Program-made: the position numbers and the translations under genes | The notes under the pieces: generated by a model | Seen by the model: only the letters and a program-made list of their open reading frames with translations | What the model was told of the DNA's origin: nothing | The model's database searches: none | Shown: piece after piece, positions 9,442 through 54,066 of the stretch | How positions within the stretch are numbered: the stretch's first letter is position 1 | How the letters are laid out: each line of letters begins with the position of its first letter | Source of the DNA: Mycobacteriales bacterium | GTDB taxonomy: Bacteria; Actinomycetota; Actinomycetes; JAFAQI01 | Reading direction: 5' to 3' | DNA length: 64,000 bases | Assembly (NCBI GenBank): GCA_035501255.1 | Contig: DATJWM010000086.1 | Coordinates: 8,203-72,202 of the forward strand

Positions 9442-9448
9442 CGGCCGA

Positions 9449-17605: not shown

Positions 17606-17655
17606 GCCGGCCGGGTCCCGCCGCATCGCGGTGGGACCCGGCCGGTTTCTTCGTA
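17606..17655 (+). terminator. Rho-independent terminator (bidirectional candidate) between convergent genes
   Basis: 'GCCGGCCGGGTCCCGCCGC atc GCGGTGGGACCCGGCCGG TTTCTT': a ~19-bp GC stem (one G-T wobble), 3-nt loop and T-tract, 20 nt after the stop of 16461-17585. Confidence 0.6.
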
Positions 17656-17675
17656 GGCGCGCGGTCCGGAGCGGC

Positions 17676-18173
17676 TCAACCAGGTTGAACGGAGGCGACG
17701 TCGGTGTCTGCCCCGCCTGCCTCGGCTTCCCGACGGCTCTCGAGCAATTGCCAGACCCGCGGAGGTTCGGAGTCCGACAGGCTCGCGGTGGCCGCCGCGG
17801 AGATGAAGGTGGTGAGGTTGTACGTGCACTCGCGGTGCCGTAAGTAACCACGGCTGGAGGTCGCCACCGCGGCGCCGTCGAGCGTGAGGCGCCACCCCCA
17901 GGTCGCGGTGTGGGGGACGGTCAGAATCTGCGTCTCCGCACTCGCGATGTCATCGCTGAGCCGCTGGGCGTCGGCCCGCGCCGCGCCAAGGTTCGGAAAG
18001 ACTCGAGCGCTGCGGCCGAGCTCCCGGTGGTTCGCGCCGGTCAGGCGCCAAGCCACCCAGGAACCGTCTGGGGCGACCTCACCCTCGAACGGTTGGTATG
18101 CGTCCGGCCAGACGGGATGGGCCGACATCCCGCTGCCGACACCGACCACGAAGAGAAACCGCGGCGGCTTCAC
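17676..18173 (-). CDS. YegP/DUF1508 family protein (tandem 'WRWRL' repeats)
   Basis: 165 aa with two half-domains: 'DGSWVAWRLTGANHRELGRSARVF' and 'TATWGWRLTLDGAAVATSSRGY', matching the DUF1508 'WRWRL..NGe.iA.S..Y' consensus. Confidence 0.5.
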   Translation of the reverse strand: MKPPRFLFVVGVGSGMSAHPVWPDAYQPFEGEVAPDGSWVAWRLTGANHRELGRSARVFPNLGAARADAQRLSDDIASAETQILTVPHTATWGWRLTLDGAAVATSSRGYLRHRECTYNLTTFISAAATASLSDSEPPRVWQLLESRREAEAGGADTDVASVQPG

Positions 18174-18336
18174 GGGTACCCTCCGGCGTCCGACCTCGGC
18201 CGCGGCGAGGGTCAGACTTCACAATCCGCGCTCGGCCATGCTGTGCAGCGAGTACACCCGATCGACGACGACGGCGGCTGAGCGGCAGACGAACACCAAA
18301 TGTGCGGTACGTGAACGAACGGTGGACGCCACCGCC

Positions 18337-32874: not shown

Positions 32875-33420
32875 TCACCCGAGTAGCGAACGGACCGGAT
32901 CGCTTCCGTCCCAGTTCGCGGCGGCATCGCGCACGAGCGTCGCCATCCCTCGCGTCAGATCGGTGAGTTCCATGATTTCGACGATCGTCGCGGGACCGGA
33001 GTCCGGCGGCTCGACATAGGCATAGCGCGCCCCGCCGTCGCCTCCGCCGGACCACACAACCGGCCAACCCTCGGCGCCGACCGTCGCCATCGTGGCGTCG
33101 AAGTCCGACGCCCACCAAGCGAGCTGATGCATGCCCGCTCGGCCCGCGTCGAGGAATTCGGTATAGATGCTCGGCACCTCGTCGTCCTGGTGAATGAGCT
33201 CGATCTGAAGATCCCCGCTGTTCGCAAACGCGACCGACAGGGTCACGGTGCACGGATTCCCGCGGTAGTCGGCGGTTTGCTCGATCCCGCGGATGACGAA
33301 AAACGGACCGACCCCGAGCGCGAGCCAACCGGCAATCGCCGCATCGAGATCGCGAACGACGTACCCGATCTGGCGAAACTCACCGGGCAGGAACGCGAAC
33401 CCATGGCGGTCGTTTCCCAT
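32875..33420 (-). CDS. VOC (glyoxalase/bleomycin-resistance/dioxygenase) family protein
   Basis: 181 aa: 'IGYVVRDLDAAIAGW..LGVGPF' and a second beta-alpha-beta-beta-beta module 'HQLAWWASDFDATMATV'. Confidence 0.55.
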   Translation of the reverse strand: MGNDRHGFAFLPGEFRQIGYVVRDLDAAIAGWLALGVGPFFVIRGIEQTADYRGNPCTVTLSVAFANSGDLQIELIHQDDEVPSIYTEFLDAGRAGMHQLAWWASDFDATMATVGAEGWPVVWSGGGDGGARYAYVEPPDSGPATIVEIMELTDLTRGMATLVRDAAANWDGSDPVRSLLG

Positions 33421-33439
33421 GCCGACGAGCGTGCCACAG

Positions 33440-33495
33440 CGCCCCCGATTCGCCGTTTTCTTGACTTAGTCCATTCTTGGCGCGAGGATGCGGGT
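33440..33495 (+). promoter_or_regulatory. furA promoter / probable FurA autoregulatory site (TTGACT -35-like element)
   Basis: 'cgccgttttcTTGACTtagtccattcttggcgcgaggatgcgg' immediately upstream of the furA GTG start. Mycobacterial furA promoters carry a TTGACT -35 element overlapping the FurA box. Confidence 0.35.
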
Positions 33496-33927
33496 GTGCC
33501 CACAACCGCCGACCTCGAGCAGCTGTTGCGCGAGGCCGGGTTGCGGGTCACTCGCCCGCGGGTCGCCGTTCTCGCCACGGTCTATGCAAATCCCCACATC
33601 GACACCGACACCATCATCAGTGCGGTCCGCGACGACCTCGGCGAAGTCTCCCGCCAGGCGGTGTACGACGTCCTGCGAGCGTTTACCGACGTCTCCCTGG
33701 TACGCCGGATCGAGCCCGCCGGGTCGGTGGCCCGCTACGAGTCGCGGGTCGGCGACAACCACCATCACGTGGTCTGCCGATCGTGCGGCGTCATCAACGA
33801 CGTCGACTGTGCTGTCGGCGAGCGGCCGTGTTTGACCGCATCCGACGATCGCGGCTTCACCATCGATGAGGCCGAGGTCGTCTATTGGGGAATCTGCGCC
33901 GAGTGCGCAACCGCACCAGATCGTTAA
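33496..33927 (+). CDS. furA: Fur family transcriptional regulator FurA
   Basis: GTG start 33496. 'LRVTRPRVAVL', 'HIDTDTI', 'SRQAVYDVLRAF', 'ARYESRVGDNHHHVVCRSCGVINDVDCAVGERPCL' are near-identical in pattern to M. tuberculosis FurA. Immediately upstream of katG. Confidence 0.85.
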   Translation: MPTTADLEQLLREAGLRVTRPRVAVLATVYANPHIDTDTIISAVRDDLGEVSRQAVYDVLRAFTDVSLVRRIEPAGSVARYESRVGDNHHHVVCRSCGVINDVDCAVGERPCLTASDDRGFTIDEAEVVYWGICAECATAPDR

Positions 33928-36195
<2,268 letters not shown>

Positions 36196-36310
36196 TCACC
36201 TGGTTGACGGCTCCGGCCGGGTCGTCCGGTTCGAACGGGACGGCTCGGCCGGCGCGTCGCCGCGTCTATCGTGGACGAAACTCGGTACGGCGAACTCGGA
36301 GGCGGTCATC

Positions 36311-37480
36311 GTGAGGGTTCTCGTTCTTGGCGGAGACGGGTTCTGCGGCTGGCCGACGGCGCTCCACCTCTCCGCCGAGGGTCATGACGTCGTCATCGCC
36401 GACAACCTGGTCCGGCGCAAGATCGACGTCGAGCTCGAGGCCTCGTCGCTGACCCCGATCTCGCCGATCTCCACCCGGCTGGCTGCCTGGAACGAGGTTT
36501 CCGGACGGACGATCGAGTTCGAGAGCATCGATGTCGCGGATCAGTATCACCGGCTGTTGACACTGATCTCCGACTGGCAGCCAGACGCGATCGTTCACTT
36601 CGCCGAGCAGCGCGCCGCGCCGTACTCAATGAAGTCCTCGTGGCACAAGCGCTACACGGTCAGCAACAACCTCAACGCCACCAACAACCTGCTGGCAGCG
36701 ATCGTCGAGGCCGACCTCGATGTTCACGTCGTGCATCTGGGCACCATGGGTGTGTACGGCTACGGGACGGCGGGGGTGAAAATTCCCGAGGGATACCTAC
36801 GGGTGCACATTCCCGCTGAGGACGGAAGCATCGTCGAGAGCGAGATTCTCTACCCGCCGAATCCCGGTTCGATCTACCACCTCACCAAGACCCAAGATCA
36901 ACTCCTATTCGCCTACTACAACAAGAACGACGGAGTCCGGGTCACCGACTTGCACCAGGGCATCGTGTGGGGGACGCAGACGAAGGAGACCCGTTTGGAC
37001 GACCGGTTGATCAACCGGTTCGACTACGACGGCGACTACGGCACGGTCCTCAACCGGTTCCTCATGCAGGCGGCAATCGGATATCCACTGACCGTCCATG
37101 GCACGGGCGGACAGACTCGCGCCTTCATTCACATTCAGGACACGGTCAGATGCGTCCAGCTCGCGGTCGAGACACCGCCGCCCCCTGGTCAACGGGTTCG
37201 GGTGTTCAACCAGATGACCGAAACCCACCGGATCATCGATCTCGCGAAGCTGGTCTCCCGCCTGACCGATGCGGAGATCGACAACGTCGAAAACCCGCGC
37301 AACGAAGCCGCCGAGAACGACCTCGTCGTCGAAAACCGCCAGCTCATCGAGCTCGGCCTCGACCCCATCACTCTCGAAGAAGGTCTACTCGGCGAGGTCA
37401 CCGAGATCGCAAAGAAGTACGCGGATCGCGCCGACCTCGACAAGATCCCGTGCCGGTCCTTGTGGCGTCAGAAGCGCTGA
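36311..37480 (+). CDS. sqdB: UDP-sulfoquinovose synthase (SQD1/SqdB)-like NAD-dependent epimerase/dehydratase
   Basis: 389 aa, collinear with plant SQD1: 'VLVLGGDGFCGW', 'DNLVRRKIDVELEASSLTPIS', 'HFAEQRAAPYSM', 'HLGTMGVYGY', 'YHLTKTQD', 'GTVLNRFLMQAAIGYPLTVHGTGGQTRAFIHIQDTV', 'RVFNQMTE'. Confidence 0.7.
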   Translation: MRVLVLGGDGFCGWPTALHLSAEGHDVVIADNLVRRKIDVELEASSLTPISPISTRLAAWNEVSGRTIEFESIDVADQYHRLLTLISDWQPDAIVHFAEQRAAPYSMKSSWHKRYTVSNNLNATNNLLAAIVEADLDVHVVHLGTMGVYGYGTAGVKIPEGYLRVHIPAEDGSIVESEILYPPNPGSIYHLTKTQDQLLFAYYNKNDGVRVTDLHQGIVWGTQTKETRLDDRLINRFDYDGDYGTVLNRFLMQAAIGYPLTVHGTGGQTRAFIHIQDTVRCVQLAVETPPPPGQRVRVFNQMTETHRIIDLAKLVSRLTDAEIDNVENPRNEAAENDLVVENRQLIELGLDPITLEEGLLGEVTEIAKKYADRADLDKIPCRSLWRQKR

Positions 37481-37487
37481 TCGGTTC

Positions 37488-38186
37488 ATGACCCTCGACC
37501 GAAGCGACGCGCTTCGTGGTCTCGTCGAGAAGGCGGCCATCGAGCTCGCCGGGAGCGAGGCCGAGGACATCCTGCGCTGGGCGGATGAACAACTCGACGG
37601 CCGCCTGGTGGTGGCGACCAGCCTGCAGGACGCGGTCGTGCTCGATCTGGCAGCACGAGTTCGCCCAGGAATGGACGTCGTCTTCCTCGACACCGGGTAC
37701 CACTTCAGCGAAACGATCGGCATGCGCGACGCCGTGCAAGCGAGCTATCCGATCCGCCTGATCTCGGTCGAACCAGGTCAGACGGTCGCCGAGCAAGATG
37801 ATGTGCACGGCCCCGACCTTTTCGCCCGTAACCCGGACCTGTGCTGTCACCTTCGCAAGGTGCAGCCACTCAACGCGATGCTCGAGATGTACGACGGCTG
37901 GGTGACGGGCTTGCGTCGCAGTGAGACTCCCGAACGCCAGGACGTCCGGGCCGTCGACTGGGACGCTGCGCGAGAGATGGTCAAGGTCAACCCGATCGTC
38001 GACTGGGACGACGCGCGCATCGACGCCTACCTCGCCGAGCACGACGTGCTGGTCAATCCGTTGCGATCCGAGGGCTACCTATCGATCGGATGCGCCCCAT
38101 GCACGACCCGTTCGGCCGACCCGAACGACCCCCGATCCGGCCGGTGGGCCGGATTCGACAAGCGGGAGTGCGGCCTGCACCTGTAA
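37488..38186 (+). CDS. cysH: Phosphoadenosine phosphosulfate / adenylylsulfate reductase CysH (Fe-S cluster type)
   Basis: Start ATG 37488, 8 nt after the sqdB stop. 'VVFLDTGYHFSET', Cys pairs 'DLCCHLRKV' and 'GCAPC', C-terminal 'KRECGLH'. Confidence 0.85.
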   Translation: MTLDRSDALRGLVEKAAIELAGSEAEDILRWADEQLDGRLVVATSLQDAVVLDLAARVRPGMDVVFLDTGYHFSETIGMRDAVQASYPIRLISVEPGQTVAEQDDVHGPDLFARNPDLCCHLRKVQPLNAMLEMYDGWVTGLRRSETPERQDVRAVDWDAAREMVKVNPIVDWDDARIDAYLAEHDVLVNPLRSEGYLSIGCAPCTTRSADPNDPRSGRWAGFDKRECGLHL

Positions 38187-38317
38187 CTGGACACGGGTAG
38201 TCACGGTAAAACCGAACGGTGTTCGAATCTGTGGCCAGATCGAGACGTCATACCTGATGAATCGCGCCGCGTGATGCTCTAACGTGTGCCACCGGTAGCC
38301 AACTCAAGGGAGAGGTC

Positions 38318-39538
38318 ATGGCCCGAAGGTCTCGCGGTCTGATCGGTATCGCTGCACTCGTGACTGTGGCCGCAGTCGCCTGCAGTTCGGGCTCGTCAGG
38401 TGGCAGCAGCCCGAGCACCACCAAGACCATCAAGATCGGTCTGCTCACCGACGTGACCGGCCTCGCGGCGTCCGGTGAACAGCACATCCAGGACGGCGTC
38501 AAGGCCGGCATCTACGCCGCCGGTCAGGACGGTTACCACATCCAGTACGTCGTCGCCGACAGTCAGACCAGTCCTTCCGCCGTTCTCAGCGCTGCGCAGA
38601 AGCTGGTCAATCAGGATCACGTCCAGGCGGTCATCGCCTCGTCGGCGTTGACCTTCGGCGCCGCACCATGGCTGGCCGCCCACCACATCCCGGTCGTCGG
38701 TGCCGCGATCGACGGGCCGGAGTGGGCGAAGTACGCCAACATGTTCTCCGTCAACGGTCCGATCGACACCACGAAGGTGACCACGCTCGGCGGGGACTTC
38801 TTCAAGCTCGTGGGCGGCACGAACGTCGGATCGCTCGGCTACGCGATCTCGCCGACCTCCGCCGAATCGGCGAAGGCGACGGCGATCTCGGCCGAGCACG
38901 CCGGGCTGAAGGCCGGCTACGTCAACGCGGCCTTCCCGTTCGGCAGCACGAACGTGCAGCCGATCGCGATCGCGATGAAGAACAAGGGCATCGACTCGCT
39001 CGCTCCGCAGGTGGACCCGAACACCTCGTTCGCGTTGATCACCGCCCTTCGCAACGAGGGCGTCGACCTCAAGGCCGCACTGTTGCCGATCGGGTACGGC
39101 GGTGACCTGCTCGACGCGGGCCCGGGCGAGAAGCAGGCGGCACAAGGGGTCTACTTCACGGTGTTCTTCCAGCCGATCGAGATGGACACGCCGGGCACGA
39201 AGTCCTTCCTCGCGAACCTCAAGGCCAGCGGCGGCACGCAGACGCCGTCGCAGCCGACGTACACCGGTTACGTGTCGGTCTTGCTTCTCGAGGCTGGGCT
39301 GAAGAACGCGGGAGCAAACCCGACGTCCACCTCCATCCTCAACGGGCTGACGAAGGTCACGTCCTTCGACGCCGGTGGTCTCGCGAACGCGCCGTACAAC
39401 CCGAGAAACCTCGCCGACGTGAGCGGACCGAACAACTGCGAATACACGGTCAAGTTCGTCGGAGACGCGTTCCAGTTGGTCAAGGGCGCGGACCCGATCT
39501 GCGGGACGGTCATTCCCGGCGAGACCGTCTCGGGATGA
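38318..39538 (+). CDS. ABC transporter substrate-binding lipoprotein, LivJ/LivK-like (type I PBP)
   Basis: Signal + lipobox 'LVTVAAVACSSG'. 'IKIGLLTDVTGLAASGEQ'. Strong SD 'AAGGGAGAGG' upstream. Confidence 0.7.
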   Translation: MARRSRGLIGIAALVTVAAVACSSGSSGGSSPSTTKTIKIGLLTDVTGLAASGEQHIQDGVKAGIYAAGQDGYHIQYVVADSQTSPSAVLSAAQKLVNQDHVQAVIASSALTFGAAPWLAAHHIPVVGAAIDGPEWAKYANMFSVNGPIDTTKVTTLGGDFFKLVGGTNVGSLGYAISPTSAESAKATAISAEHAGLKAGYVNAAFPFGSTNVQPIAIAMKNKGIDSLAPQVDPNTSFALITALRNEGVDLKAALLPIGYGGDLLDAGPGEKQAAQGVYFTVFFQPIEMDTPGTKSFLANLKASGGTQTPSQPTYTGYVSVLLLEAGLKNAGANPTSTSILNGLTKVTSFDAGGLANAPYNPRNLADVSGPNNCEYTVKFVGDAFQLVKGADPICGTVIPGETVSG

Positions 39539-39539: not shown

Positions 39540-40238
39540 TTACGCCCGCCTGGGCGGGCGGCGGGTCCCCGGATCCGCTCGCCCGCCCAGGGCGGCGTAG
39601 CAGAACGACCACAGCCGATCGGCAATTTCCTCGACCGACTCCTCGCTGCGCGCATATTCGTAGTGGTGAAACACCGCGATGACCAGCTGGGTCACGAGCC
39701 AGGCGTCGTGATCGGCATTGCTGGGCGCGAGCAGCCCCGCCGCCGTCGCGGCCCGGATCTGCGGGAGCAGCAGATCGGTGAACGCGCTCGTCGCCTGCGC
39801 GAGCTCCTGCGGGTGAAGGCGGTGCAGGCGCCAGTGCTCGGTCGTGATGAAGCGCGAGCCACGATCTCCCTGGCCGTTATCGATCCCGCCGACGACCGAT
39901 CGAACATAGAACTCCAGGCGGGACACCGGGTCCGGTAGGTCGCGAGCCGCGAGCTCGAGCCACGCGCAGGTTTCGGAGATGAGCTCCTCGAAGACGGCGA
40001 GAAGCACTTGGTCCTTGCCTTCAAAGTGCGTGTAGAAGGTCTGGACCGCGATCCCCGCCTCCTTGACCAACTCGTGTGTGGTGAACTCGGACCCCTTGAG
40101 TACGACGAGGCGACGGGCCGCATCCACGATCTGCTGCGCCCGTTCCGCACTGCGCTGACGCGATCGCTGCACCGAGGGGGACCGGTCGGCGGCGCGTTCC
40201 AACCAGGCGGCAGCGGCAGGCTGAGGATCGCCGGTCAT
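39540..40238 (-). CDS. TetR family transcriptional regulator (last gene of the catabolic operon)
   Basis: Start at internal ATG 40236-40238, which overlaps the thiolase stop (ATGA). HTH 'AERAQQIVDAARRLVVLKGSEFTTHELVKEAGIAVQTFYTHFEGKDQVL'. Confidence 0.7.
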   Translation of the reverse strand: MTGDPQPAAAAWLERAADRSPSVQRSRQRSAERAQQIVDAARRLVVLKGSEFTTHELVKEAGIAVQTFYTHFEGKDQVLLAVFEELISETCAWLELAARDLPDPVSRLEFYVRSVVGGIDNGQGDRGSRFITTEHWRLHRLHPQELAQATSAFTDLLLPQIRAATAAGLLAPSNADHDAWLVTQLVIAVFHHYEYARSEESVEEIADRLWSFCYAALGGRADPGTRRPPRRA

Positions 40239-41434
40239 CGGTCCGGCTCCGAGGTGTAGACGACGGCTCCACCGAGGTGCGGCGAAGCGTGGCACGCGAC
40301 GCCGACGGTCGCGTCGCGACGTTGGCGCGGTCCGGCCCGCCCAGACAGCTGCAGGTAACACTCGAGCATCTGCGGAATCCCGTGCATCCGGCCGTTACCG
40401 AGCGCTCCACCGCCGGACAGCACCGGCAGGCCGCCCTCGTCCGCGTCAAGACCACCGGACAGCGCGAGCTCGTGCGCCTCGCCAACGGCGCAGTAGCCGA
40501 GACACTCGAGCCAGAAGTAGACGAACGGCGAGAATCCGTCGTACACCTGCGGAAGGTCGACCTCGTCGACAGTGACCCCGCTTGCCCGCCACAGGCGGCG
40601 CGCAAGCGCCGCACCGACTTCCATGATGTCCTCGAGTGGCCAGTGCGCCGGCAGACGGCGAGTCCGCGGCTGGCCGGCGGCGAAACCACTGACGAATACC
40701 GGCCGATGAGGAAGGTCCTTGGCGCGTTCGACCGAGGTAAGGATGAAGGCGGCGACGCCGTCAACCGGAAGGTCGCAGTCATACCGGCAGATCGGATCGC
40801 TGATCAGCGGCGCGTTGAGGTACTCGGCGCTGGCCAACGGCCGGTCGTGCCAGAACGACCAAGGGATTCGGGCGCCCTGCCGACGGGCTTCGACCAGCAC
40901 CGCGGCCATCGCTTCACGGCTCGCGCCGTACCTCTGGACGTACTCGTTGTAGGTCAGCGCGATCATCGAGATCGGCCCGAAGAAACCCTGCGGCACGGTC
41001 CACTGGAGCGGCCCGCTGACCGAGGTCATCGGGTTTCGGTGGTATTGGCCGCGCGGGTTGTGCAACGCCCGGTGCATCAGCACGTAGTCGGCGGCGCCGC
41101 TCGCCACCGCGTTGACCGCCATCGCCACCGCCCCCGGAATCTGGCCGAACCCCTGAAAACCTGCGACGTAGCTCGGGTCGGAGCCGAGATGCTGCGCCAA
41201 CCAGTTGGCCGACACGATGCTGACGCCGTCGGTGATCTCGTGCGCTCCGGCCGTCGGAAACAGACTGCCGGTGACGAATCCGTCCATGTCCGCAACCGTC
41301 AGGCCGGCGTCGGAAATGGCCGCCCGCGCCGTGTCGACGGCCAGCGCGCCGAGCGGAACCGGAGCGTGCCGGGTGATCGGACTCTGCGCGTAGCCGACGA
41401 TCGCGACCTTGTTGCGCGCCTCGAATCCGCTCAT
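40235..41434 (-). CDS. Thiolase-like lipid-transfer protein (Ltp/SCP-x type, non-decarboxylating)
   Basis: 399 aa: 'KVAIVGYAQSP', thiolase-fold C-terminus 'GGALGNGRMHGIPQMLECYLQLSGRAG'. Paired with a DUF35 gene. Confidence 0.75.
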   Translation of the reverse strand: MSGFEARNKVAIVGYAQSPITRHAPVPLGALAVDTARAAISDAGLTVADMDGFVTGSLFPTAGAHEITDGVSIVSANWLAQHLGSDPSYVAGFQGFGQIPGAVAMAVNAVASGAADYVLMHRALHNPRGQYHRNPMTSVSGPLQWTVPQGFFGPISMIALTYNEYVQRYGASREAMAAVLVEARRQGARIPWSFWHDRPLASAEYLNAPLISDPICRYDCDLPVDGVAAFILTSVERAKDLPHRPVFVSGFAAGQPRTRRLPAHWPLEDIMEVGAALARRLWRASGVTVDEVDLPQVYDGFSPFVYFWLECLGYCAVGEAHELALSGGLDADEGGLPVLSGGGALGNGRMHGIPQMLECYLQLSGRAGPRQRRDATVGVACHASPHLGGAVVYTSEPDR

Positions 41435-41856
41435 TGCGTCTCGTCCAGGGTGAAGGCGGGAATCGAGACGCCCGGCGCGACATCCTCGAAGGTCACGCGC
41501 ACGCCGGCTCCGAGCCGAAGGTCGGCTGCCGTGCCATTGACCAAGCGGGCGACCATGCGCAAGTCGGCCTGATCGGCAAGCTCGACGTCGACGAGAACAT
41601 AGGGGACCTCATCGTCAAACCCCGCAAGGAACGACTGGCGCACGACGGTCCAGGACCGAACCACCCCGCGGTGGCTCACCGGCGTGAAACAGATGCCGGC
41701 AGACGTGCTCGCGCAGGACGCGCACACGCTGTCCGGCGGAAGACTCAGAGCCCCGCACGCCGAGCAACTTGCCATCGTGAGCGTGTGCTCCGCGGCCGCC
41801 TGCCAGTAGGGCGCGGACTGCTCATCGGGAACCGGGAGCGGGCGGGCCGCGGTCAC
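41431..41856 (-). CDS. DUF35 Zn-ribbon + OB-fold protein (ChsH2 C-terminal-like partner of Ltp thiolase)
   Basis: 141 aa: 'CSACGALSLPPDSVCASC' Zn-ribbon, then an OB-fold. Start overlaps the thiolase stop region. Confidence 0.7.
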   Translation of the reverse strand: MTAARPLPVPDEQSAPYWQAAAEHTLTMASCSACGALSLPPDSVCASCASTSAGICFTPVSHRGVVRSWTVVRQSFLAGFDDEVPYVLVDVELADQADLRMVARLVNGTAADLRLGAGVRVTFEDVAPGVSIPAFTLDETQ

Positions 41857-43070
41857 GGGATCGCGCTCGCTTCCTTGAGCTGGGCGACCCGATCCCAGTC
41901 GTAGCCCAACTCGATCAGGATGGACTCGGTATGCTCACCATGCTCCGGTGCGCGGCGAAGCGCCGCAGGCCGCCCGTCGAACTGGACGGGAACGTTGGGC
42001 AAGCGGTAGCTCCCGCCGTCGTGCGCAACCTCGCCGATATAGGAGTTCGCGATCACCTGCGGATCGTCGAGCAACTCCGGCACCGACTGCACCGGCGACC
42101 ACGGCGCGTCGATCCCCGACAGGAGCGTTTTCCACTCCTCGAAGGTCCGGCCCGCGAACTCGGCGTCCAGGATGGCGACACATGCGGCGCTGTTCGTCCG
42201 CCTCGCCGCGAGGTCGGCAAACCGGCGGTCGGTCGCGAGGTCCTCGCGGCCGATCAGGGCACAGAACTCACCCCAGTAGCGATCCCCCTCCAAGAACACG
42301 AGCTGGATGTGTCGCCCGTCCTTCGTGCGATAAACGCCGACGAGCGGGTTGGGGGTCGCACCCCGGTCGGGCATGTGCATCGGACCGCTCCCGTCGAGTG
42401 CGGCGAGAACGTCCGAGGACAGCGTCCACATCGCGGTCGCGAGGAGCGACACGTCAACGATCGCGCCACGACCGTGACGCTCGCGGTTGAACAGTGCGGT
42501 CGCAATTCCGAACGCCAGCGACATGGCACCGTTGCGGTCACCCATCGCCCCGCGTTGACTGATCGGGTAATCCCGATCGTCCGGGCTCAGCATGTGCGCC
42601 AACCCCCCGCGTGCCCAGAATGCAGAGGCGTCGTAACCGGCTTGGTTGGCGTCGGGCCCACGAACTCCGTAACCGTGTCCCCGGGCGTAGATCAGCCGGG
42701 GAAAGCGTTCGAGCACCCCCGCGGCCTCAAGTCCGAGGCGTTCGAGCGCGCGCGGACGAAGGCTCGTGAGGAACACGTCCGCGGACTCGAGGAGTCGATC
42801 GAGAACCTCGCGACCGGCGTCGCGACGGATGTCGAGCGCCAGTGATCTCTTTCCCCGGTTGGCGAGCGCCATGGACAGGTTCACCCCGGCGCGGTCCGCA
42901 CCGATGCCTTGGGTGAGCAACCCTCGGTAGGGATCTCCACTGGGCGGTTCGACATGAATGACGTCCGCACCCCAGTCCGCGAGCAACGCCCCCGCGACCG
43001 GTACGAAGACCCACTGGGCGAGCTCGACGACCCGGATCCCATCGAAAGCCTCGTCGAATGACGCGCTCAT
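41853..43070 (-). CDS. CoA-transferase family III (CaiB/BaiF)
   Basis: Start at internal ATG 43068-43070 (overlaps the upstream stop, ATGA). 'GIRVVELAQWVFVPVAGALLADWGADVIHVEPPSGDPYR'. Confidence 0.8.
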   Translation of the reverse strand: MSASFDEAFDGIRVVELAQWVFVPVAGALLADWGADVIHVEPPSGDPYRGLLTQGIGADRAGVNLSMALANRGKRSLALDIRRDAGREVLDRLLESADVFLTSLRPRALERLGLEAAGVLERFPRLIYARGHGYGVRGPDANQAGYDASAFWARGGLAHMLSPDDRDYPISQRGAMGDRNGAMSLAFGIATALFNRERHGRGAIVDVSLLATAMWTLSSDVLAALDGSGPMHMPDRGATPNPLVGVYRTKDGRHIQLVFLEGDRYWGEFCALIGREDLATDRRFADLAARRTNSAACVAILDAEFAGRTFEEWKTLLSGIDAPWSPVQSVPELLDDPQVIANSYIGEVAHDGGSYRLPNVPVQFDGRPAALRRAPEHGEHTESILIELGYDWDRVAQLKEASAIP

Positions 43071-44533
43071 CCGCCACGCGCCTCGACCAGCCGGCGCCGA
43101 TTCACTTTGGTTGCTTCGCTGCGCGGCATCGACTCGACCAGCTCGATCGACTTGGGAACCTTGTACGGCGACAGTCGCCCCTTTGCATAGGTCACCACCT
43201 CGTCCAGGGTCGGCGGATCCGCCACGTCGGACGGCTCGATGATCGCGTGGACCCGCCGACCCCACTCCTCGTCGCGAAGGCCCACGACGACGACGTCGGC
43301 AATCTTCGGGTGGTCGATCAGGGCCTTTTCCACCTCAGCCGGGAACACGTTGGCCCCACCCGTGATGATCAGGTCGACCCGGCGGTCGGCGATGTAGAGG
43401 TAGCCGTCGTCGTCGACGTAGCCCATGTCGCCGACCGTGCGAAACCCGTCCGGTGTCTCGCGGAGAGCAGGAGCGTCCCCGAGATACAGCGATCCCCCGT
43501 AAGTCGCCGATCGCAGGAAGATCTCACCGATCTCACCGGCTGGCACCTCGGCGCCATCGTCACCAACGATCCTGATCTCGGTGCCCCGCATCCCGCACCC
43601 GACGCTGCCCTCGTGAGCCATCCACTCGTCTCCCCGCAACGCGGTAATGCCCACCGCCTCGGTCATGCCGTAGGCCATGATGATCCGCTCCGGCCCGATC
43701 AGTGCCGCCCACCGATGCACCAGAGACGGAGGCATCGGCGCCGCTCCCTGCTGGATCCAGACCAGACTCGACAGATCCCGGTCATCGACACCCGGCGCAT
43801 CGGCCATTCGCTGGAGCATCGTCGGAGTCGCGGTGAAGGTGGTGATCCGATGCGTCTCGATCAGCTCGATGGCCAGCGACGCGTCGAATTTCTCCATCAC
43901 CACGAGGCGATCCCCGGCCAACAAGTTGTGTAGTGCGGTGAAGGCGTTGACGTGGTACATCGGGGCGAGAACGAGGATCGTCTGGGGTCGCGGAATCGGC
44001 ATCCAGTTCTCGGCCATCGGCGTACTGAAGACCGGGTTGAACACGGCAGGTGCCGCGCTCAGGATGATCTTCGGGGTGCCGGTGGAACCGCTGCTACAGA
44101 TTCCCTGGAGATGCGGCGCGATGAGGTCGGGAAGGACCGGCGCCTCCCGACCTGCGGTCGCCGCGATCCAGGGCACGTCGTCGGTGGACAGGTAGACCTT
44201 CGGGCTGATGACCTCCCGTAGGCGGGCGAGCTCCCAGTCGGGTACATCCCAGCGCACGGGCACCGGCACGGCGCCGAGCTTCCATGTGGCGAGTGCCGCA
44301 AGGACGAACTCCGGCGAGTTTCGCAGCCCGAGACCGACGCGGTCGCCGAAACCCACGCCACGCTCGGCCAACGCGCCTGCCAGTTCGCTGGAGCGGCGGT
44401 CGAGCCAACCGTAGGAATCAATGTTCTCGTGACCGTCGAGGCCAACGTGACGGCACGCCTCCTCGTCCGGGCGCTCCCGGGCGAGCACCGCGATCCGGCC
44501 CGCCTGGCTGATCGCACCTTCGGTCAGCGTCAC
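43067..44533 (-). CDS. AMP-dependent synthetase/ligase (acyl-CoA synthetase)
   Basis: GTG start. 'SSGSTGTPKIIL' (AMP-binding), 'YGMTEA', 'GDMGYVDDDGYLYIADRRVDLIITGG', 'PKSIELVESMPRSEATKV'. Confidence 0.85.
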   Translation of the reverse strand: MTLTEGAISQAGRIAVLARERPDEEACRHVGLDGHENIDSYGWLDRRSSELAGALAERGVGFGDRVGLGLRNSPEFVLAALATWKLGAVPVPVRWDVPDWELARLREVISPKVYLSTDDVPWIAATAGREAPVLPDLIAPHLQGICSSGSTGTPKIILSAAPAVFNPVFSTPMAENWMPIPRPQTILVLAPMYHVNAFTALHNLLAGDRLVVMEKFDASLAIELIETHRITTFTATPTMLQRMADAPGVDDRDLSSLVWIQQGAAPMPPSLVHRWAALIGPERIIMAYGMTEAVGITALRGDEWMAHEGSVGCGMRGTEIRIVGDDGAEVPAGEIGEIFLRSATYGGSLYLGDAPALRETPDGFRTVGDMGYVDDDGYLYIADRRVDLIITGGANVFPAEVEKALIDHPKIADVVVVGLRDEEWGRRVHAIIEPSDVADPPTLDEVVTYAKGRLSPYKVPKSIELVESMPRSEATKVNRRRLVEARGG

Positions 44534-44534
44534 C

Positions 44535-45002
44535 TCAACCCGCCTCGCCGGACCCCACCGGCGTCAGGGCCACCACCGGAATCGACCGCTGCGTTCGCGA
44601 CTGATACACGTCGTAGTTGGGCCAGACGGACGTGACGATGGCCCACGCTCGATCCTTGTCCTCCTCCGACACGGTCCTCGCCACGACGTCGATCGAGTCG
44701 GCCTTGACCTGGATCGACGCCCGCGGCGCGGCCGAGAGGTTCAGGTACCACTGCGGGTGCATCGGCGCACCGCCCATGGACGCGACCACGAGGTAGTCAT
44801 CGCCATCACGCGCGAAGATCAGCGGGGTCGTGTAAGCCTTCCCGCTCGTGCGGCCGGTGTGGGTGAGCAGCAAACTCGGAACGCCGTTCCAGATGTATCC
44901 GACCTCGCCACCCGTCTCCTGGTAGCGACGCACGTGCTCCGCTCCCAGGAGATCGATGTTCGGCTGCTGGTAGTTAGCCTCGGTCGCCGGTCCCTCAGTC
45001 AC
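44535..45002 (-). CDS. Nitroreductase-family deazaflavin (F420H2)-dependent oxidoreductase (Ddn-like, DUF385)
   Basis: 155 aa: 'LLLTHTGRTSGKAYTTPLIFARDGDDYLVVASMGGAPMHPQWYLNL..ASIQV'. Confidence 0.75.
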   Translation of the reverse strand: MTEGPATEANYQQPNIDLLGAEHVRRYQETGGEVGYIWNGVPSLLLTHTGRTSGKAYTTPLIFARDGDDYLVVASMGGAPMHPQWYLNLSAAPRASIQVKADSIDVVARTVSEEDKDRAWAIVTSVWPNYDVYQSRTQRSIPVVALTPVGSGEAG

Positions 45003-45014
45003 TGGCTCCGCCTT

Positions 45015-46262
45015 TCAGTCGAAGACAACCGGAATCGCGGTCGCGCCGCGTTCGTAAAACCCGATCAGCCTCGGTGGCTCCGCGTCCGGGTCGAGACGCA
45101 GGTTGGGCAGCCGGTCCAGCAGCGCGTTGACGCCGGTGGTCATCTCCGCTCGGGCAACGTGCATCCCGAGGCAGATATGTGAGCCGCTGCCGAACGCCAG
45201 CGACGCCTTCGGAGGTCGGTGAATGTCGTAGGCGTCCGGGCGGTCCCAGCGGGCGGGGTCACGGTTGGCCGCGCCGAGACACAGGTGGATCACCGACCCC
45301 TCCGGGATCCGCACTCCGAAATGCTCGACGTCGCGGGTGACCCAGCGGGAGAACATCGGGTCGGTGGGCTGCCAACGCAGGCACTCCTCGATTGCCGGCT
45401 TCAGCAACGACCGATCTGCCCGCACAGCCTCGAGCACTTCAGGCCGCTGGAGCAGCGCGGTGAGCAGGATGCCCATCTGTTTCCAGGTCGTACCGGAACC
45501 CGCAGCGAGCAAGAGCAGAGCGAAGGAGTGGATCTCCGCGTCCGTCAGGCGGTGACGCGTTCCGTCCTCGTCGGTGATCTCCGCCTCGACGAGCACGCTG
45601 ATCAAATCGTCCTCGGGCTGCTCGCGGCGGGCCGCCACGATCGGCGCGACGATCGCGAGGACCTCGTCCGGGCGCCCGAGTGCCGCCCGAACGTCGAGCG
45701 CCTGGGACACCGGTATGCCGAAGCTCCCAGTGATCGTGAGCACCGGGATCGCGGCGCAGAAGTCGACGTTCAGCTCACCGCGACCCTTGCCCGCGAGCTC
45801 GTCCACGAGCAGCGAAACCGTCTGTTCGATCCAGTTCCGAATCCACCACTGCGCCTTCGCGGGGACGAACGAGGGCTGGACCAGCGTTCGATAGCGGCGA
45901 TGCTGAGCACCGTTCATCGACAGCATGCTGTTCGTGATCCCAGGGGCGGCGTCAAGGTCGACCGCCTCGGCCGACGAGGCGAACGTCTCGGAATCCCGGT
46001 ACGCCGCATCGCAGGCGGCGAAGGAAAACGCCGAGAAGTGCGGTCGGTCCGGCTCGGGTAGCCCGTGAAAGTAGAGCGTGTCGTTGACGCCGCTCAACTC
46101 GTGCACAGTGCCCACGTGGACGGGTCGCTCCTCGCGGAGGCCGGCCCAGATGGGGTACGGGTCGTCGTCGTAGGCACCGCCCAGCAACGGCATGAAGCTG
46201 CTGCGCAGATCGAACAGCTCCCGCACCCGGGCGACGTCCAGCAAACCGCTCATCTCGGTCAT
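45015..46262 (-). CDS. Cytochrome P450
   Basis: Start at ATG 46260-46262 ('MTEMSGLL', overlapping the SDR stop). 'AGSGTT' I-helix, 'ECLRW' (ExxR), heme loop 'FGSGSHICLG'. The upstream extension to 46670 is unsupported. Confidence 0.9.
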   Translation of the reverse strand: MTEMSGLLDVARVRELFDLRSSFMPLLGGAYDDDPYPIWAGLREERPVHVGTVHELSGVNDTLYFHGLPEPDRPHFSAFSFAACDAAYRDSETFASSAEAVDLDAAPGITNSMLSMNGAQHRRYRTLVQPSFVPAKAQWWIRNWIEQTVSLLVDELAGKGRGELNVDFCAAIPVLTITGSFGIPVSQALDVRAALGRPDEVLAIVAPIVAARREQPEDDLISVLVEAEITDEDGTRHRLTDAEIHSFALLLLAAGSGTTWKQMGILLTALLQRPEVLEAVRADRSLLKPAIEECLRWQPTDPMFSRWVTRDVEHFGVRIPEGSVIHLCLGAANRDPARWDRPDAYDIHRPPKASLAFGSGSHICLGMHVARAEMTTGVNALLDRLPNLRLDPDAEPPRLIGFYERGATAIPVVFD

Positions 46263-47038
46263 CGGGCGACGTACCCCCCGTCGACCGGCAGGAGGACCCC
46301 AGTGATGTTTGCGGCCCGGTCCGAGCAGAGGAAGACCGCGGCCTCGGCACAGTCCTCTGCGCGGATCGGCTTGCCTAACGGATGCGTCGAACCCACCTGC
46401 TCGGCGATCCGCTGTAGATCCTCGCCGGAGGCCTGCAGTCCACCCGCGGCCATGAAGCCGGTGAAGGGCATCCCGGCAGGGCAGATCGCGTTGACCCGGA
46501 TGCCGAACGGAGCGACCTCCACAGCAACGGCACGAGTGAGTTGATGCACAGCGCCCTTTGTCGCGCCATACACGGTGCCGCCCCATCCGACCAGGCCGGC
46601 CACCGAGCCGGTGTTGAGGATGACACCGCCGTTGCCCTGTTGTTTGAACCGGATCACTGCCTGCTTGCAACCGAAGAAAACGCCGCGGAAGTTGATCGAG
46701 GTGAGGCGTTCGAAGTCCTCAGCCGTGTGATCCTCGAGCAACGAGCCAAGCCGGGGAGTCGGCACTCCCACATTGTTGTAAAGAACGTCCAGAGAACCGT
46801 AAGCAGCGATTGCGCTATCGACAAGTGCGACAACGTCCGGCTCGGAGGAGACGTCACACTGCTGCGCGACTGCCTCACCGCCCGCATCCGCGATCAGCGC
46901 GGCGGTCTCCTTTGCGGCATCAACGTTGATGTCCGCGCACACAACCCGGGCGCCCTCGGCGGCAAACCGCAACGCTGACACGCGGCCGACACCGGATCCC
47001 GAACCGGTGATGATCGCGGATTGGTCTTTGAGCAACAC
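46259..47038 (-). CDS. SDR family oxidoreductase
   Basis: 'AIITGSGSGVGR', 'NNVG', 'YGATKGAV'. Confidence 0.85.
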   Translation of the reverse strand: MLLKDQSAIITGSGSGVGRVSALRFAAEGARVVCADINVDAAKETAALIADAGGEAVAQQCDVSSEPDVVALVDSAIAAYGSLDVLYNNVGVPTPRLGSLLEDHTAEDFERLTSINFRGVFFGCKQAVIRFKQQGNGGVILNTGSVAGLVGWGGTVYGATKGAVHQLTRAVAVEVAPFGIRVNAICPAGMPFTGFMAAGGLQASGEDLQRIAEQVGSTHPLGKPIRAEDCAEAAVFLCSDRAANITGVLLPVDGGYVAR

Positions 47039-51198: not shown

Positions 51199-51978
51199 GT
51201 GTCGCGTCGCGAACTCGAAGCGGCCATGGGGCTCGTGATCACCAGCACGGACGCCGCGGAGCGGTTCCGTGCCGATCCGGTGCGCTTTGCCGGCGACCTC
51301 GAGATGACCGACGTCGAACGTCGTTGGCTGGTCGAGATGGTCACCGACCTGACCGGGCTCACTCCGAGCTTCGTGGAGAAGCGGCGCCGCCAGCTGTCAA
51401 ACGCGGCGAACCTCACCCTTCGGTTCCTCGGAAGCCGCGGTGACCGCTGGCTGGACAGGTACATCGAGGCCAACCCGCCGGTGCCTGTCGTTGCCGATGA
51501 CCCGGCGCGGTGGATCAGTTGGCTCGTGGCCGAGATCGACGCCCACTCTGCCGACATTGATGGCGTCGCGCTGATCCGCTCGATGGCACAGCTGGATCAC
51601 ATGCGCCACCGCGCGTTTCGGACACCAGGACCGTTGACGCACCACGACGTCGGGGGACCGCCGTCCGCCTCGACGCCGCTTCGGCTCGCCGCCCCCACCG
51701 ACCTCGGCCGATTCGACTACGACGTACGCAAGCTCCGGGACATCCCACCCGAAACCGCCGCGCAGGTCCCCCCGGACCCGTGCTACTTGCTCGTCTACCG
51801 CCAGCCCGGTGGGCGAGTGATGTTCGAGCGAATCGAGAACGAGGCAGTCCTCGACGCGTTGATCGACCTTTCCGGACAGGCCCATCCGATTGACGATCTG
51901 GTTAGCGTGAGCCATCACCCCGACGGGCTGCGGGCCCGGCTGACCCGACTCTACGAAATGGGGGCGTTGACAACATGA
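51199..51978 (+). CDS. Hypothetical protein (possible DUF692 partner, MbnC/DUF2063-like; unverified)
   Basis: 259 aa with no recognised motifs. Sits 13 nt after the kinase and overlaps the DUF692 start (ATGA). Confidence 0.4.
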   Translation: MSRRELEAAMGLVITSTDAAERFRADPVRFAGDLEMTDVERRWLVEMVTDLTGLTPSFVEKRRRQLSNAANLTLRFLGSRGDRWLDRYIEANPPVPVVADDPARWISWLVAEIDAHSADIDGVALIRSMAQLDHMRHRAFRTPGPLTHHDVGGPPSASTPLRLAAPTDLGRFDYDVRKLRDIPPETAAQVPPDPCYLLVYRQPGGRVMFERIENEAVLDALIDLSGQAHPIDDLVSVSHHPDGLRARLTRLYEMGALTT

Positions 51979-52820
51979 CGGCGACGCCGCTGATTGGAGC
52001 GGGCTTCCGACCGGAACTTCCCGGGTTGTTCAACGACCCGGCGGCCGCCGGAATCGACGTGGCTGAACTGATCGCGGATCGGTACTTCGCCGCGGAGGGA
52101 TTCAACCGAGCGTGGGAGCTCGACCTGCTCCGAGAACACCAGGTGCCCACCGTTATCCACGGTCTGTCCGGCAACGCCGCCTCCGCGACCGGTCCGACCC
52201 GTGAGTACCTCGCCACCATCCGGACGCTCGCGGACGCGGTGGACTGCATCGCCTACAGCGACCACCTCGCGCTCACCGGCACGACCGAGCGCTCGCTTGG
52301 CCACCTCGCTCCCAACCGGTTCGACGACGACCTGCTCGCTCATGTCGTGACCAACATCGATCTGATGGCAGACATGACCGACCGGCGACCGAGGCTGGAA
52401 AACCTCGCGACGACGATCATGATGAGCGGATCGACGTACTCCGTTGAAGAGTTCTATCTGCGTCTGTTGGATGCCAGCGACAGGTGGGATTGCCTGGTCG
52501 ACGTCACGAACCTCTGGATCAACGCGCAGAACCGCGAGCTCGACCCGTACGCCTTTGTCGATGCGATCCCGCCGGACCGGCTCCGCTACGTCCACCTTGC
52601 CGGCGGTCACTTCATGCACGGTGAGTGGGTCGACTCACACTCGCACGCCGTGCATGACGGCGCGTTCGACATCCTCGAGCACCTTCTGACGCACGCCGTT
52701 CCCGACGTGATCATCGTCGAGCGCGATACCAACTGGGAAGGGGCCGAGGAGCAGGTGCGCGCCGACATCGCCCGCGCACGCTCACTCGTCGCCGCCTCTC
52801 CTCTCCTCGTGGCCGCCTGA
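51975..52820 (+). CDS. DUF692 (UPF0276; MbnB/TglH-like multinuclear non-heme iron enzyme, TIM-barrel)
   Basis: 281 aa: 'IGAGFRPEL', 'PTVIHGLSGN', 'SDHLALTG', 'LENLATTIMMSGSTYSVEEFY', 'LVDVTNLWINAQN', 'VHLAGGH', 'IIVERDTNW'. These are the conserved metal-ligand / TIM-barrel motifs of DUF692. Confidence 0.75.
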   Translation: MTATPLIGAGFRPELPGLFNDPAAAGIDVAELIADRYFAAEGFNRAWELDLLREHQVPTVIHGLSGNAASATGPTREYLATIRTLADAVDCIAYSDHLALTGTTERSLGHLAPNRFDDDLLAHVVTNIDLMADMTDRRPRLENLATTIMMSGSTYSVEEFYLRLLDASDRWDCLVDVTNLWINAQNRELDPYAFVDAIPPDRLRYVHLAGGHFMHGEWVDSHSHAVHDGAFDILEHLLTHAVPDVIIVERDTNWEGAEEQVRADIARARSLVAASPLLVAA

Positions 52821-52821
52821 C

Positions 52822-54066
52822 ATGAGTCAGATCGACGGTCAGGTCGAACCCGGCGTCGCACTCACCGACCCGTGCGAGACCGCTCGAGTGGTGGGTGAGC
52901 GAGCCGCGCCGTACGTCGCGATTCACGACCGCGAAGGAAGTTTCGTCGTGGAGGGGTACACCGCGGTCCGCGAGAGCGGGTACGGCGTCCTTGCGATTCC
53001 GGCCGATCTCGGTGGTGACGACGCCGACCTCGGGGAGGTGTGTCGGGCGCAGCAGGTTCTTGCCGGCTACTGCGCGAGCACGGCACTTGCCATCGCCATG
53101 CACCACCACACCGTGCTGTCGCTGGCCGTTCGTTGGCGTGCAGGGGACGACGCTGTGGGGACCTTCCTTCAGCGGGTTGCCAGCGAGAACCTGATCCTGT
53201 GCTCGAGCGGCACCGTCGACCCCTCGAAACCCGGCCTGCGCGCCACTCGGGTTGCGGGCGGCTTCCGAGTCTCCGGTCGCCGGCCCTACGCCAGCGGTGT
53301 GCCCGGTGCCGACTTCTTGCTTGCGCTCGCCGGCGACACCAACGGCGAGTGGATCATCAACGTAGTCATCGATCCCGCCGCTGATGGAGTCGTCATCCAC
53401 GACGACTGGAACGGCATGGGGATGCGCGGATCCGGGTCAAATTCGGTCACGCTCAGCGACGTCTTCGTCGCCGACGCGGACACGTACATGCAACGCCCCT
53501 GGCCGCGGCGCGGGCGTCGGCCGCGAGCGGGGGCCGACGGCGCCCAAACGCCTGCACCGCCCCAGGGCACGGTGTCTCCGGCACTGCGACGGCTCCCGTT
53601 GCGGATCCATGGCCTGATGGTGGCGCTTCCGGTGATCACCGCGGTGTACGTCGGTGCAGGCACTGCGATGTACGAACGGGCGGTAGCCCTCCTGAGCGAA
53701 GGTCGACGCGCACACGAAGAGGTCACCTACCGCCTGGTCGGCGAGATGGCCTCCCACCAGCACACGGCTGCGACGGCGCTCGAATCGATGGTCAGTGAGG
53801 TCCACGACGACGCGCTCGGATCCGAAGACCTCTACGTGCGGGTCATGCTGGCCAAACGTCAGGCCGTGCTGGCGTCGATCTCGACGGTGGAGCTTGGGAT
53901 GGAAGCGCTCGGAGCCATGTCCTATGACCGCGACCAACCTTTCGAGCAGGCGCTGCGTGATCTTCGGGCCGGCATCACCCACCCGCTCCCACCTGAACAC
54001 ACCCTCCGCGGAGTCGGTCGCTCGATCATGGTCCGTGCCGACTGGGCTCGCGGAGCGACCGACTGA
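52822..54066 (+). CDS. Acyl-CoA dehydrogenase family (ACAD-like flavoenzyme)
   Basis: 414 aa: 'AIPADLGGDDADL', 'HDDWNGMGMRGSGSNSVTLSDVFV'. Contains a Pro/Arg-rich insertion 'RPWPRRGRRPRAGADG'. Confidence 0.6.
   Translation: MSQIDGQVEPGVALTDPCETARVVGERAAPYVAIHDREGSFVVEGYTAVRESGYGVLAIPADLGGDDADLGEVCRAQQVLAGYCASTALAIAMHHHTVLSLAVRWRAGDDAVGTFLQRVASENLILCSSGTVDPSKPGLRATRVAGGFRVSGRRPYASGVPGADFLLALAGDTNGEWIINVVIDPAADGVVIHDDWNGMGMRGSGSNSVTLSDVFVADADTYMQRPWPRRGRRPRAGADGAQTPAPPQGTVSPALRRLPLRIHGLMVALPVITAVYVGAGTAMYERAVALLSEGRRAHEEVTYRLVGEMASHQHTAATALESMVSEVHDDALGSEDLYVRVMLAKRQAVLASISTVELGMEALGAMSYDRDQPFEQALRDLRAGITHPLPPEHTLRGVGRSIMVRADWARGATD

Follow-up and report, generated by a model that had tools for sequence, protein, structure and literature searches.

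How does a UDP-sulfoquinovose synthase obtain its sulfite? This enzyme, known as SQD1 in plants and SqdB in bacteria, forms a 4-keto-5,6-ene from uridine diphosphate (UDP)-glucose and then adds sulfite to it, and sulfite is a reactive compound that is normally drained by sulfite reductase. In plastids, the flux from adenylyl-sulfate (APS) reductase to SQD1 is textbook knowledge. The question is raised here by two adjacent genes, sqdB and cysH, at 36311-38186 of a 64,000-nucleotide (nt) stretch of DNA from a Mycobacteriales bacterium (GenBank assembly GCA_035501255.1, contig DATJWM010000086.1, positions 8,203 to 72,202 of the forward strand; about 66% G+C), which is referred to below as the window. 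CysH-type APS reductases convert APS to AMP and sulfite by way of a thiosulfonate on a C-terminal cysteine, which is resolved by thioredoxin. Comparisons of the two genes with their relatives make it likely that 36311-38186 is a two-gene operon for making UDP-sulfoquinovose with its own sulfite supply.

Isolated UDP-sulfoquinovose synthases are sluggish and need high sulfite (PMC4388408). Recombinant SQD1 has low activity in vitro, native SQD1 has been reported in a complex with FdGOGAT, and with the archaeal enzyme Agl3 the ene intermediate builds up when sulfite is supplied at 0.1 mM (PMC4388408). The authors of the same study state that the way in which sulfite is transferred to these enzymes in vivo is unknown.

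Identity of SqdB

The first gene (36311-37480, plus strand) starts with GTG, ends with TGA at 37478-37480 and encodes 389 amino acids (aa). Residues 2-386 of the product align with residues 3-383 of the Arabidopsis SQD1 crystal sequence 1qrr_A (E 3.7e-95), and the next families of the short-chain dehydrogenases/reductases (SDR) follow at E 1e-12 (UDP-glucuronate decarboxylase) and E 1e-7 (GalE). The best NCBIfam match is NF041015 (UDPsulfquin_syn equivalog, 339.4 bits), compared with 46 bits for the GalE hidden Markov model (HMM). An identity of 70-75% is shared with cyanobacterial SqdB and likewise with homologues from Alphaproteobacteria, from Deinococcota and Firmicutes, and from numerous Actinomycetota.

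The family has been defined by an N-terminal G-xx-G-xx-G motif and the SDR triad, and mutagenesis of Agl3 has identified His95, Arg101, and Met145 as essential (PMC4388408). In the window protein the NAD-binding motif is GGDGFCG at residues 6-12, the triad Thr145/Tyr182/Lys186 (SQD1 numbering) corresponds to T145, Y189, and K193, and the essential residues of Agl3, together with His183 beside its catalytic Tyr, are matched by H96, R101, M146, and H190. All of these (H96, R101, T145, M146, Y189, H190, and K193) are without variation across 163 aligned sequences. The first-pass annotation, which was made from the letters of the window alone, had described the product as collinear with SQD1 along its whole length, including the segments of the sulfite/UDP-glucose site, and both statements are borne out; a grouping with ordinary epimerases or a loss of the sulfite-site residues was not found. 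Judged by its sequence, the gene product is a full-length orthologue of SqdB/SQD1, which is predicted to make UDP-sulfoquinovose from UDP-glucose plus sulfite.

Identity of CysH and its sqdB-linked clade

The domain PF01507 (PAPS_reduct) was found in the product of the second gene with 146 bits (E 1e-42), and the protein scores above the cutoffs of NF002537 (249 vs 154 bits) and TIGR00434 (190.5 vs 165.1 bits). Its closest solved relative is the APS reductase of Mycobacterium tuberculosis (7lhr, E 7e-77). The Fe-S ligands Cys119/120/202/205 (CC...CxxC) and Cys228 in the ECGLH tail are kept in more than 95% of 121 sequences, and these Fe-S and catalytic cysteines line up with those of M. tuberculosis CysH. 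The earlier assignment to the Fe-S type of APS or phosphoadenylyl-sulfate (PAPS) reductases is therefore confirmed. Since the meaning of the Fe-S cysteine signature is established in this family, the enzyme is expected to use APS rather than PAPS and to depend on thioredoxin.

The gene shares its frame with an open reading frame (ORF) at 37269-38186, in which ATG 37488 is a plausible start: the N-terminus of the resulting 232-aa protein agrees with those of its relatives. With this start, the spacer between sqdB and cysH is 7 nt and not 8 nt as annotated at first; the adjacency itself stands. Position 37489 does not fit this frame as a start, and translation from it runs into stop codons.

A neighbour-joining tree was constructed from the 120 closest CysH clusters and M. 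tuberculosis CysH. All of the 22 CysH known to be sqdB-linked fall in one large group with a uniform length of 231-233 aa, and a separate basal group contains M. tuberculosis CysH, a sirA-linked sequence, and other proteins of variable length. Four diagnostic positions part the two groups, at which the window protein has L36, V41, R90, and G137. Among five sampled close relatives, four (P0242, P0332, P0315, and P0312) are encoded immediately 3' of an sqdB gene for a 389-aa SqdB, one of them (P0332) in the complete genome of Nocardioides cynanchi (CP044344); the fifth (P0341) lies within a canonical sirA-cysH-cbiX operon. Sixteen further relatives are candidates for linkage, each having a longest contig of the same length as that of a top SqdB match.

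The spacers from sqdB to cysH in this clade run from -47 and -4 nt through +1 nt (TGAcATG) at five loci and +7 nt in the window to +18 nt at two loci, a range that is usual for genes with coupled translation. The flanks of the pair vary by locus (katG in the window; electron transfer flavoprotein (ETF) genes or glycosyltransferase genes in relatives), and sqdB and cysH are thus kept as a unit. No homologue of SirA or CbiX was found anywhere in the 64-kb window, in which cysH has sqdB and a Peripla_BP_6 protein gene as its neighbours, and the pair does not follow the canonical sirA-cysH-sirB/cbiX arrangement. These features indicate that the window CysH belongs to a dedicated sqdB-linked type, distinct from the sirA-linked housekeeping CysH.

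Recurrent linkage and CysH-SqdB fusion proteins

The following loci were used for examining how often the two genes are linked: 80 genome and 80 metagenome loci around SqdB homologues and two further contexts (n = 162), 119 of which have at least 900 bp on both sides of sqdB. A CysH homologue was found within the flank in 23 of the 162 loci, and in 21 of these 23 it is directly adjacent or fused (10 fused in frame, 6 immediately downstream, 3 immediately upstream, and 2 divergent; the other 2 are about 3.5 kb away). According to our own rough estimate, if a genome has one or two cysH genes, they would come to lie beside sqdB by chance in about 1 locus in 1000 (about 0.1 locus expected). The linked CysH proteins fall in at least three lineages (M. 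tuberculosis-like, the fused type with the insertion RWWWE, and alphaproteobacterial), and the cysH-linked loci are spread over different parts of the SqdB tree. Since several CysH lineages and scattered positions in the SqdB tree are involved, the linkage must have arisen repeatedly; sqdB followed by cysH, cysH followed by sqdB, divergent pairs, and fusions are all seen.

The single ORFs that carry both enzymes have 641-673 aa at 10 loci, and a longer one is encoded in the complete genome of Isoptericola jiangsuensis (Table 1). The architecture PF01507+PF01370 was present in at least 120 database clusters, namely in all of the best 120 matches to the Isoptericola fusion, with several Isoptericola among them as well as Nocardioides antri, N. 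coralli, and N. maradonensis. Their annotations name a single activity, either "phosphoadenylyl-sulfate reductase" or "UDP-sulfoquinovose synthase". When representatives at 50% identity were searched with the fusion, the CysH-SqdB fusions were not listed as such, having been collapsed into other clusters. The fused CysH domain carries the RWWWE insertion, and loci of the fused type adjoin genes of glycosyltransferase families 2 and 4 (GT2/GT4) and of Sulfotransfer_2.

SqdB is fused to other partners as well (P0367, P0368, P0452, P0405, and P0478), namely to GT8 of the SqdD family, to a DXD-motif transferase, and to LAGLIDADG inteins, and one SqdB-GT8 fusion carries an added HAD hydrolase domain. 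Since SqdB is joined to CysH in some proteins and to GT8 or other transferases in others, the fusion partners are its pathway neighbours on both sides.

Proposed sulfite supply

The pair can be explained by the following mechanism. A specialised CysH paralogue would reduce APS to AMP and sulfite through a thiosulfonate on Cys228, resolved by thioredoxin, and SqdB would form the 4-keto-5,6-ene from UDP-glucose and add the CysH-derived sulfite to give UDP-sulfoquinovose. Co-translation from one mRNA, probably together with physical proximity, would provide SqdB with a high local concentration of sulfite, and an APS reductase that is co-translated with SqdB or fused to it would shield sulfite from sulfite reductase.

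Functional coupling, with sulfite from CysH passing to UDP-sulfoquinovose synthesis, is strongly supported by the conservation of the pair, by the sqdB-linked clade of CysH, and by natural fusions, and the proposal of a sulfite-supplying pair made in the first-pass annotation is upheld in this respect. The same annotation spoke of channeling and of translational coupling, for which the gene arrangement and the fusions are the grounds. Physical channeling of sulfite is suggested because CysH-SqdB fusions exist, and co-transcription and translational coupling in the window are suggested by local signals. sqdB has a ribosome-binding site of its own, and the 7-nt spacer before cysH, which has no Shine-Dalgarno sequence, is consistent with coupling of cysH to sqdB by re-initiation. 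A GC-rich hairpin between katG and sqdB is probably a terminator or insulator of katG in the actinobacterial style, which would make sqdB-cysH a separate transcription unit. The RNA fold of 36190-36315 has -62.6 kcal/mol (z = -2.1). A simple promoter and terminator consensus scan gave nothing useful and did not call this hairpin because it has no T-tract, and an Rfam scan of 35900-38500 detected no riboswitch and no known RNA.

Fate of UDP-sulfoquinovose

No sulfoquinovosyl transferase of the SqdX or SqdD type was found with sqdB in the window, and clues to the fate of the product come from its relatives. At six related loci (L081, L082, L163, L166, L167, and L170), sqdB or sqdB-cysH is flanked by a gene for a 274-aa GT2 protein, whose best NCBIfam matches are the polyprenyl- or dolichyl-phosphate sugar synthases AglJ, PpgS, and ArnC. 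The same SqdB clade is also flanked by genes for uncharacterised proteins with 7-11 predicted transmembrane (TM) segments and, at L081, by a GtrA gene. These neighbours suggest a route by a polyprenyl-phosphate carrier to an envelope glycoconjugate rather than to sulfoquinovosyl diacylglycerol (SQDG). It is tentatively proposed that, besides the sulfite-donor question being answered by the pair, sulfoquinovose borne on polyprenyl phosphate may decorate the actinobacterial envelope as a sulfonated wall glycoconjugate not yet described.

Weighing of the alternatives

Several observations weigh against the proposal of a private sulfite supply and its envelope extension. The window CysH is borderline under the cutoff of the APS_reductase subfamily TIGR02055 (215.6 vs 235.3 bits), which the fused CysH domain of I. 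jiangsuensis exceeds (246.5 bits), and the trees are neighbour-joining trees without support values. Several of the closest relatives of the window sqdB (L006, L081, L082, L085, and L126) have no adjacent cysH, and the private reductase is therefore optional. The AlphaFold2 model of the Isoptericola fusion (from a 63-sequence alignment) has a mean predicted local distance difference test (pLDDT) score of 63.6 and a predicted template-modelling (pTM) score of 0.46, with the linker and the CysH tail disordered, and is too poor for judging a domain interface. The window contains no hit at E 1e-6 to the GT4/GT2 proteins associated with sqdB at 80 loci, the SqdX-like GT4 group among them, and none at E 1e-3 to further sqdB-partner proteins; the proteins looked for comprised the SqdX-like GT4, a PpgS-like GT2, a 744-aa GT4, and multi-TM proteins. 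Pfam assigned a GT8 domain to none of the ORFs in the window, no direct query with an SqdD-type GT8 being made.

Could the first gene encode an ordinary UDP-hexose 4-epimerase or 4,6-dehydratase? Pfam names the SDR only as Epimerase/GDP_Man_Dehyd, the NCBI label of an identical protein is "NAD-dependent epimerase/dehydratase family protein", and 339.4 bits lie below the curated NF041015 cutoff of 575 bits. However, cyanobacterial SqdB proteins score only 344-351 bits with this model and other bacterial SqdB 339-340 bits; even the proteins of cyanobacterial loci L051 and L072, in which a gene for an SqdX-like GT4 lies immediately downstream of sqdB, reach only 349-351 bits. Since these also miss 575 bits, the cutoff marks a narrower group and is uninformative on membership in SqdB. 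With the wide gap in favour of SQD1 and of NF041015 over the competing families, the identity to cyanobacterial SqdB, and the complete set of residues essential in Agl3 and SQD1, an epimerase or dehydratase is extremely improbable. Another reading is a chance neighbourhood, in which cysH is just the assimilatory APS reductase for housekeeping and lies beside sqdB by accident. In its favour, the protein shares 58% identity with M. tuberculosis CysH and equally with a sirA-linked CysH, none of the normal catalytic features is missing, and a second cysH cannot be demonstrated from the window for this metagenome-assembled genome (MAG). Yet the two genes lie side by side far more often than chance would predict, in independent lineages and in different orientations, the window CysH belongs to the clade located after sqdB, apart from the sirA-linked type, and the two proteins occur fused. 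This explanation is largely refuted by the comparative data and is very unlikely to hold.

A functional link granted, the two enzymes might be co-expressed only, with sulfite diffusing freely and with neither complex nor channeling. The genes are separate in the window, the linker of the fusion is long (about 60 aa) and predicted to be disordered, and a linked cysH is dispensed with by many sqdB genes; against this stand the repeated fusion, which is classically taken as a sign that two proteins physically act together, and the high sulfite required by SqdB enzymes in vitro. We regard co-regulation alone as quite possible, although we do not favour it. As for the product, UDP-sulfoquinovose might serve the classical purpose, namely SQDG that replaces phospholipid at phosphate limitation, with the transferase encoded elsewhere. 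SQDG is known to play this part in cyanobacteria, Rhodobacter, and Bacillus coahuilensis, and 17-35 kb upstream of sqdB there are genes for PPK2 and for a phosphate-type ATP-binding cassette (ABC) transporter. On the other side, no SqdX or SqdD homologue was found in the window, the neighbours in the same clade are the PpgS/AglJ-like synthase, the 7-11-TM proteins, and GtrA, and the fused type is accompanied by GT2/GT4 and sulfotransferase genes. SQDG is thus a rather unlikely destination.

Surroundings in the window

The coordinates of the features are listed in Table 1.

Table 1. Features of the sqdB-cysH locus, of its surroundings in the window, and of CysH-SqdB fusions at other loci.
Feature	Position	Strand	Basis or remark
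Fur-family (FurA/PerR-like) gene	33127-33927		Longest ORF 266 aa; Fur domain at residues 136-251 only
GC-rich hairpin, 15-bp stem, no T-tract	36213-36252	+	RNA fold; directly 3' of katG stop (36195)
GGAGG ribosome-binding site	36298-36302	+	8 nt 5' of sqdB GTG; direct sequence reading
sqdB, UDP-sulfoquinovose synthase (SQD1/SqdB type extended SDR)	36311-37480	+	Matches to SQD1 1qrr and NF041015
Spacer TCGGTTC, 7 nt, without Shine-Dalgarno	37481-37487	+	Sequence reading
cysH paralogue, Fe-S APS (adenylyl-sulfate) reductase, 232 aa	37488-38186	+	PF01507, NF002537, TIGR00434, 7lhr
Peripla_BP_6 binding-protein gene	38318-39538		Downstream of cysH
TetR gene and acyl-CoA/steroid-type catabolic block			Minus strand; beyond Peripla_BP_6 gene
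Stf0-like sulfotransferase ORF	55175-56074		81 bits vs 400-bit cutoff
GT4-like ORF, 438 aa	57910-59226	-	N-terminal GT4 domain only; no NCBIfam family
CysH-SqdB fusion ORF, 695 aa	L054 7152-9239		Isoptericola jiangsuensis, complete genome; CysH domain, linker of about 60 aa, SqdB
Other CysH-SqdB fusion loci	L018, L027, L034, L042, L047, L076, L104, L136, L154, L171

Upstream of sqdB are the Fur-family gene and then katG (33127-36195); the true start of the Fur-family gene is probably much further downstream than 33127. A katG gene lies about 4 kb upstream of sqdB also in the cyanobacterial contig L051 (1846-4017). Since this is the sole recurrence among the 162 loci, the proximity of katG and sqdB is treated as a probable coincidence. 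Within the catabolic block beyond the Peripla_BP_6 gene, 40235-46670 (minus strand) contains genes for a thiolase-like protein, a ChsH2-type oligonucleotide/oligosaccharide-binding (OB)-fold protein, a family III CoA-transferase, an AMP-ligase, an F420H2-dependent quinone reductase, and a cytochrome P450, and resembles clusters for the catabolism of steroids or lipid side chains in Mycobacteriales.

The first-pass annotation had seen a sulfur-glycoconjugate theme in the GT4 gene and the Stf0-like sulfotransferase gene of the window. Both ORFs exist, but the theme is rejected since the GT4 is unlike the sqdB-associated transferases (E 0.9 against the SqdX-like protein) and the Stf0-like gene belongs to an unrelated operon. 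The latter, at 51199-56074 (plus strand) and possibly beginning at about 50000, consists of five genes, each of which overlaps or abuts the next. They encode an unknown protein (weakly NGO1945_C/DUF2063-like), an MNIO/DUF692 maturase (BufB/HvfB-like, below cutoffs), a protein whose fold is that of a flavin monooxygenase (HsaA/SfnB/DszC-like), a Cupin_8/JmjC protein, and, closing the operon, the Stf0-like sulfotransferase. The operon looks like a candidate cluster, including sulfation, for a ribosomally synthesized and post-translationally modified peptide (RiPP) or for peptide modification. Just upstream of it, an APH-like kinase domain is encoded. The GT4-like ORF is overlapped by 4 nt by a Peptidase_A4 gene (57155-59226 in total, minus strand), an odd pairing that is unrelated to sqdB.

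Genes for the phosphate-type ABC transporter, followed by that for the PPK2 polyphosphate kinase, are at 832-1656 and 12274-19281 (minus strand); the transporter parts are an unusually long PBP_like_2 binding protein (665 aa), two permeases, and a distant ABC ATPase. A 593-aa fusion of DsbD-type transmembrane, AhpC/TSA-redoxin, and Thioredoxin_10 domains is encoded at 19446-21227 (plus strand). At 3747-12325 (minus strand) and 16461-17585 (plus strand), a sortase gene lies amid large ORFs with few or no Pfam matches (958, 618, 425, and 374 aa). Traces of Big_3_5 and WxLIP_PGBD were seen in these ORFs, several of which have atypical G+C by codon position (GC1 <= GC2); surface proteins may be encoded here, or the frames may have been called wrongly.

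Relation to known systems

Both enzymes of the pair belong to known families; of the operon, the dedicated CysH clade, and the fusion, no description was found in the searched literature, whose coverage is incomplete. With Arabidopsis SQD1 and bacterial SqdB, the window protein shares the full-length family, the GxxGxxG motif, and the T/Y/H/K residues together with H96 and R101, but its host is a non-photosynthetic actinobacterium. In the sqdB-sqdX and sqdB-sqdD-sqdC operons the partner of sqdB is a sulfoquinovosyl transferase, whereas in the window it is a sulfite producer, with no SqdX or SqdD found nearby. Agl3 of Sulfolobus acidocaldarius catalyses the same reaction, its H95, R101, M145, Y182, and K186 are conserved in the window SqdB, and it is a precedent for sulfoquinovose in N-glycans and not in a lipid. 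It is about 40% identical to SQD1 and forms a separate archaeal cluster, and its sulfite source is given as unknown, with no cysH linkage described (PMC4388408).

M. tuberculosis CysH has the fold, the Fe-S cysteines, and the catalytic tail in common with the window protein (58% identity over 192 residues). It sits in sirA-cysH-sirB, flanked by a sulfite reductase (NIR_SIR) gene and a chelatase gene, whereas the window CysH is shorter, follows sqdB, and has the four diagnostic substitutions. The plant plastid, in which APS reductase supplies sulfite to SQD1 and native SQD1 has been reported with FdGOGAT, follows the same metabolic logic; the plant link is metabolic, without gene fusion or operon, whereas that of the window is hard-wired genetically. 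The fusions of Nocardioides, Isoptericola, and MAGs, also of Actinomycetota, have the same two activities and the same presumed flow of sulfite. They differ in being one polypeptide with CysH at the N-terminus, in the CysH lineage (33-39% identical to that of the window), and in belonging to another SqdB clade.

The pathway had been called unusual for this kind of actinobacterium at first. Close homologues are in fact abundant in genomes and MAGs of Actinomycetota, and an actinobacterial SqdB homologue was noticed before, the mycobacterial Mvan_5143 in the tree of PMC4388408. The point holds for known producers: the producers of sulfoquinovose named in a 2026 review are phototrophs, some archaea, and a small number of bacteria, Bacillus coahuilensis for example, and actinobacteria are treated there as its degraders only.

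Significance

Sulfoquinovose ranks with the most plentiful organosulfur compounds, and the operon, the CysH clade, and the fusions offer a concrete answer to how sulfite may be delivered for its synthesis, namely by a private APS reductase. The instance in the window is a plain two-gene module, and its interest rests on the wider pattern, which is testable in cultured relatives: several carriers are cultured, and complete genomes are available for Nocardioides cynanchi, N. coralli, and Isoptericola jiangsuensis. As a biocatalyst for UDP-sulfoquinovose, the fusion could surpass SQD1 or Agl3. For the organisms themselves, sulfoquinovose-containing molecules are predicted in soil actinobacteria, in which a sulfo-sugar pathway of this kind has so far been undescribed.

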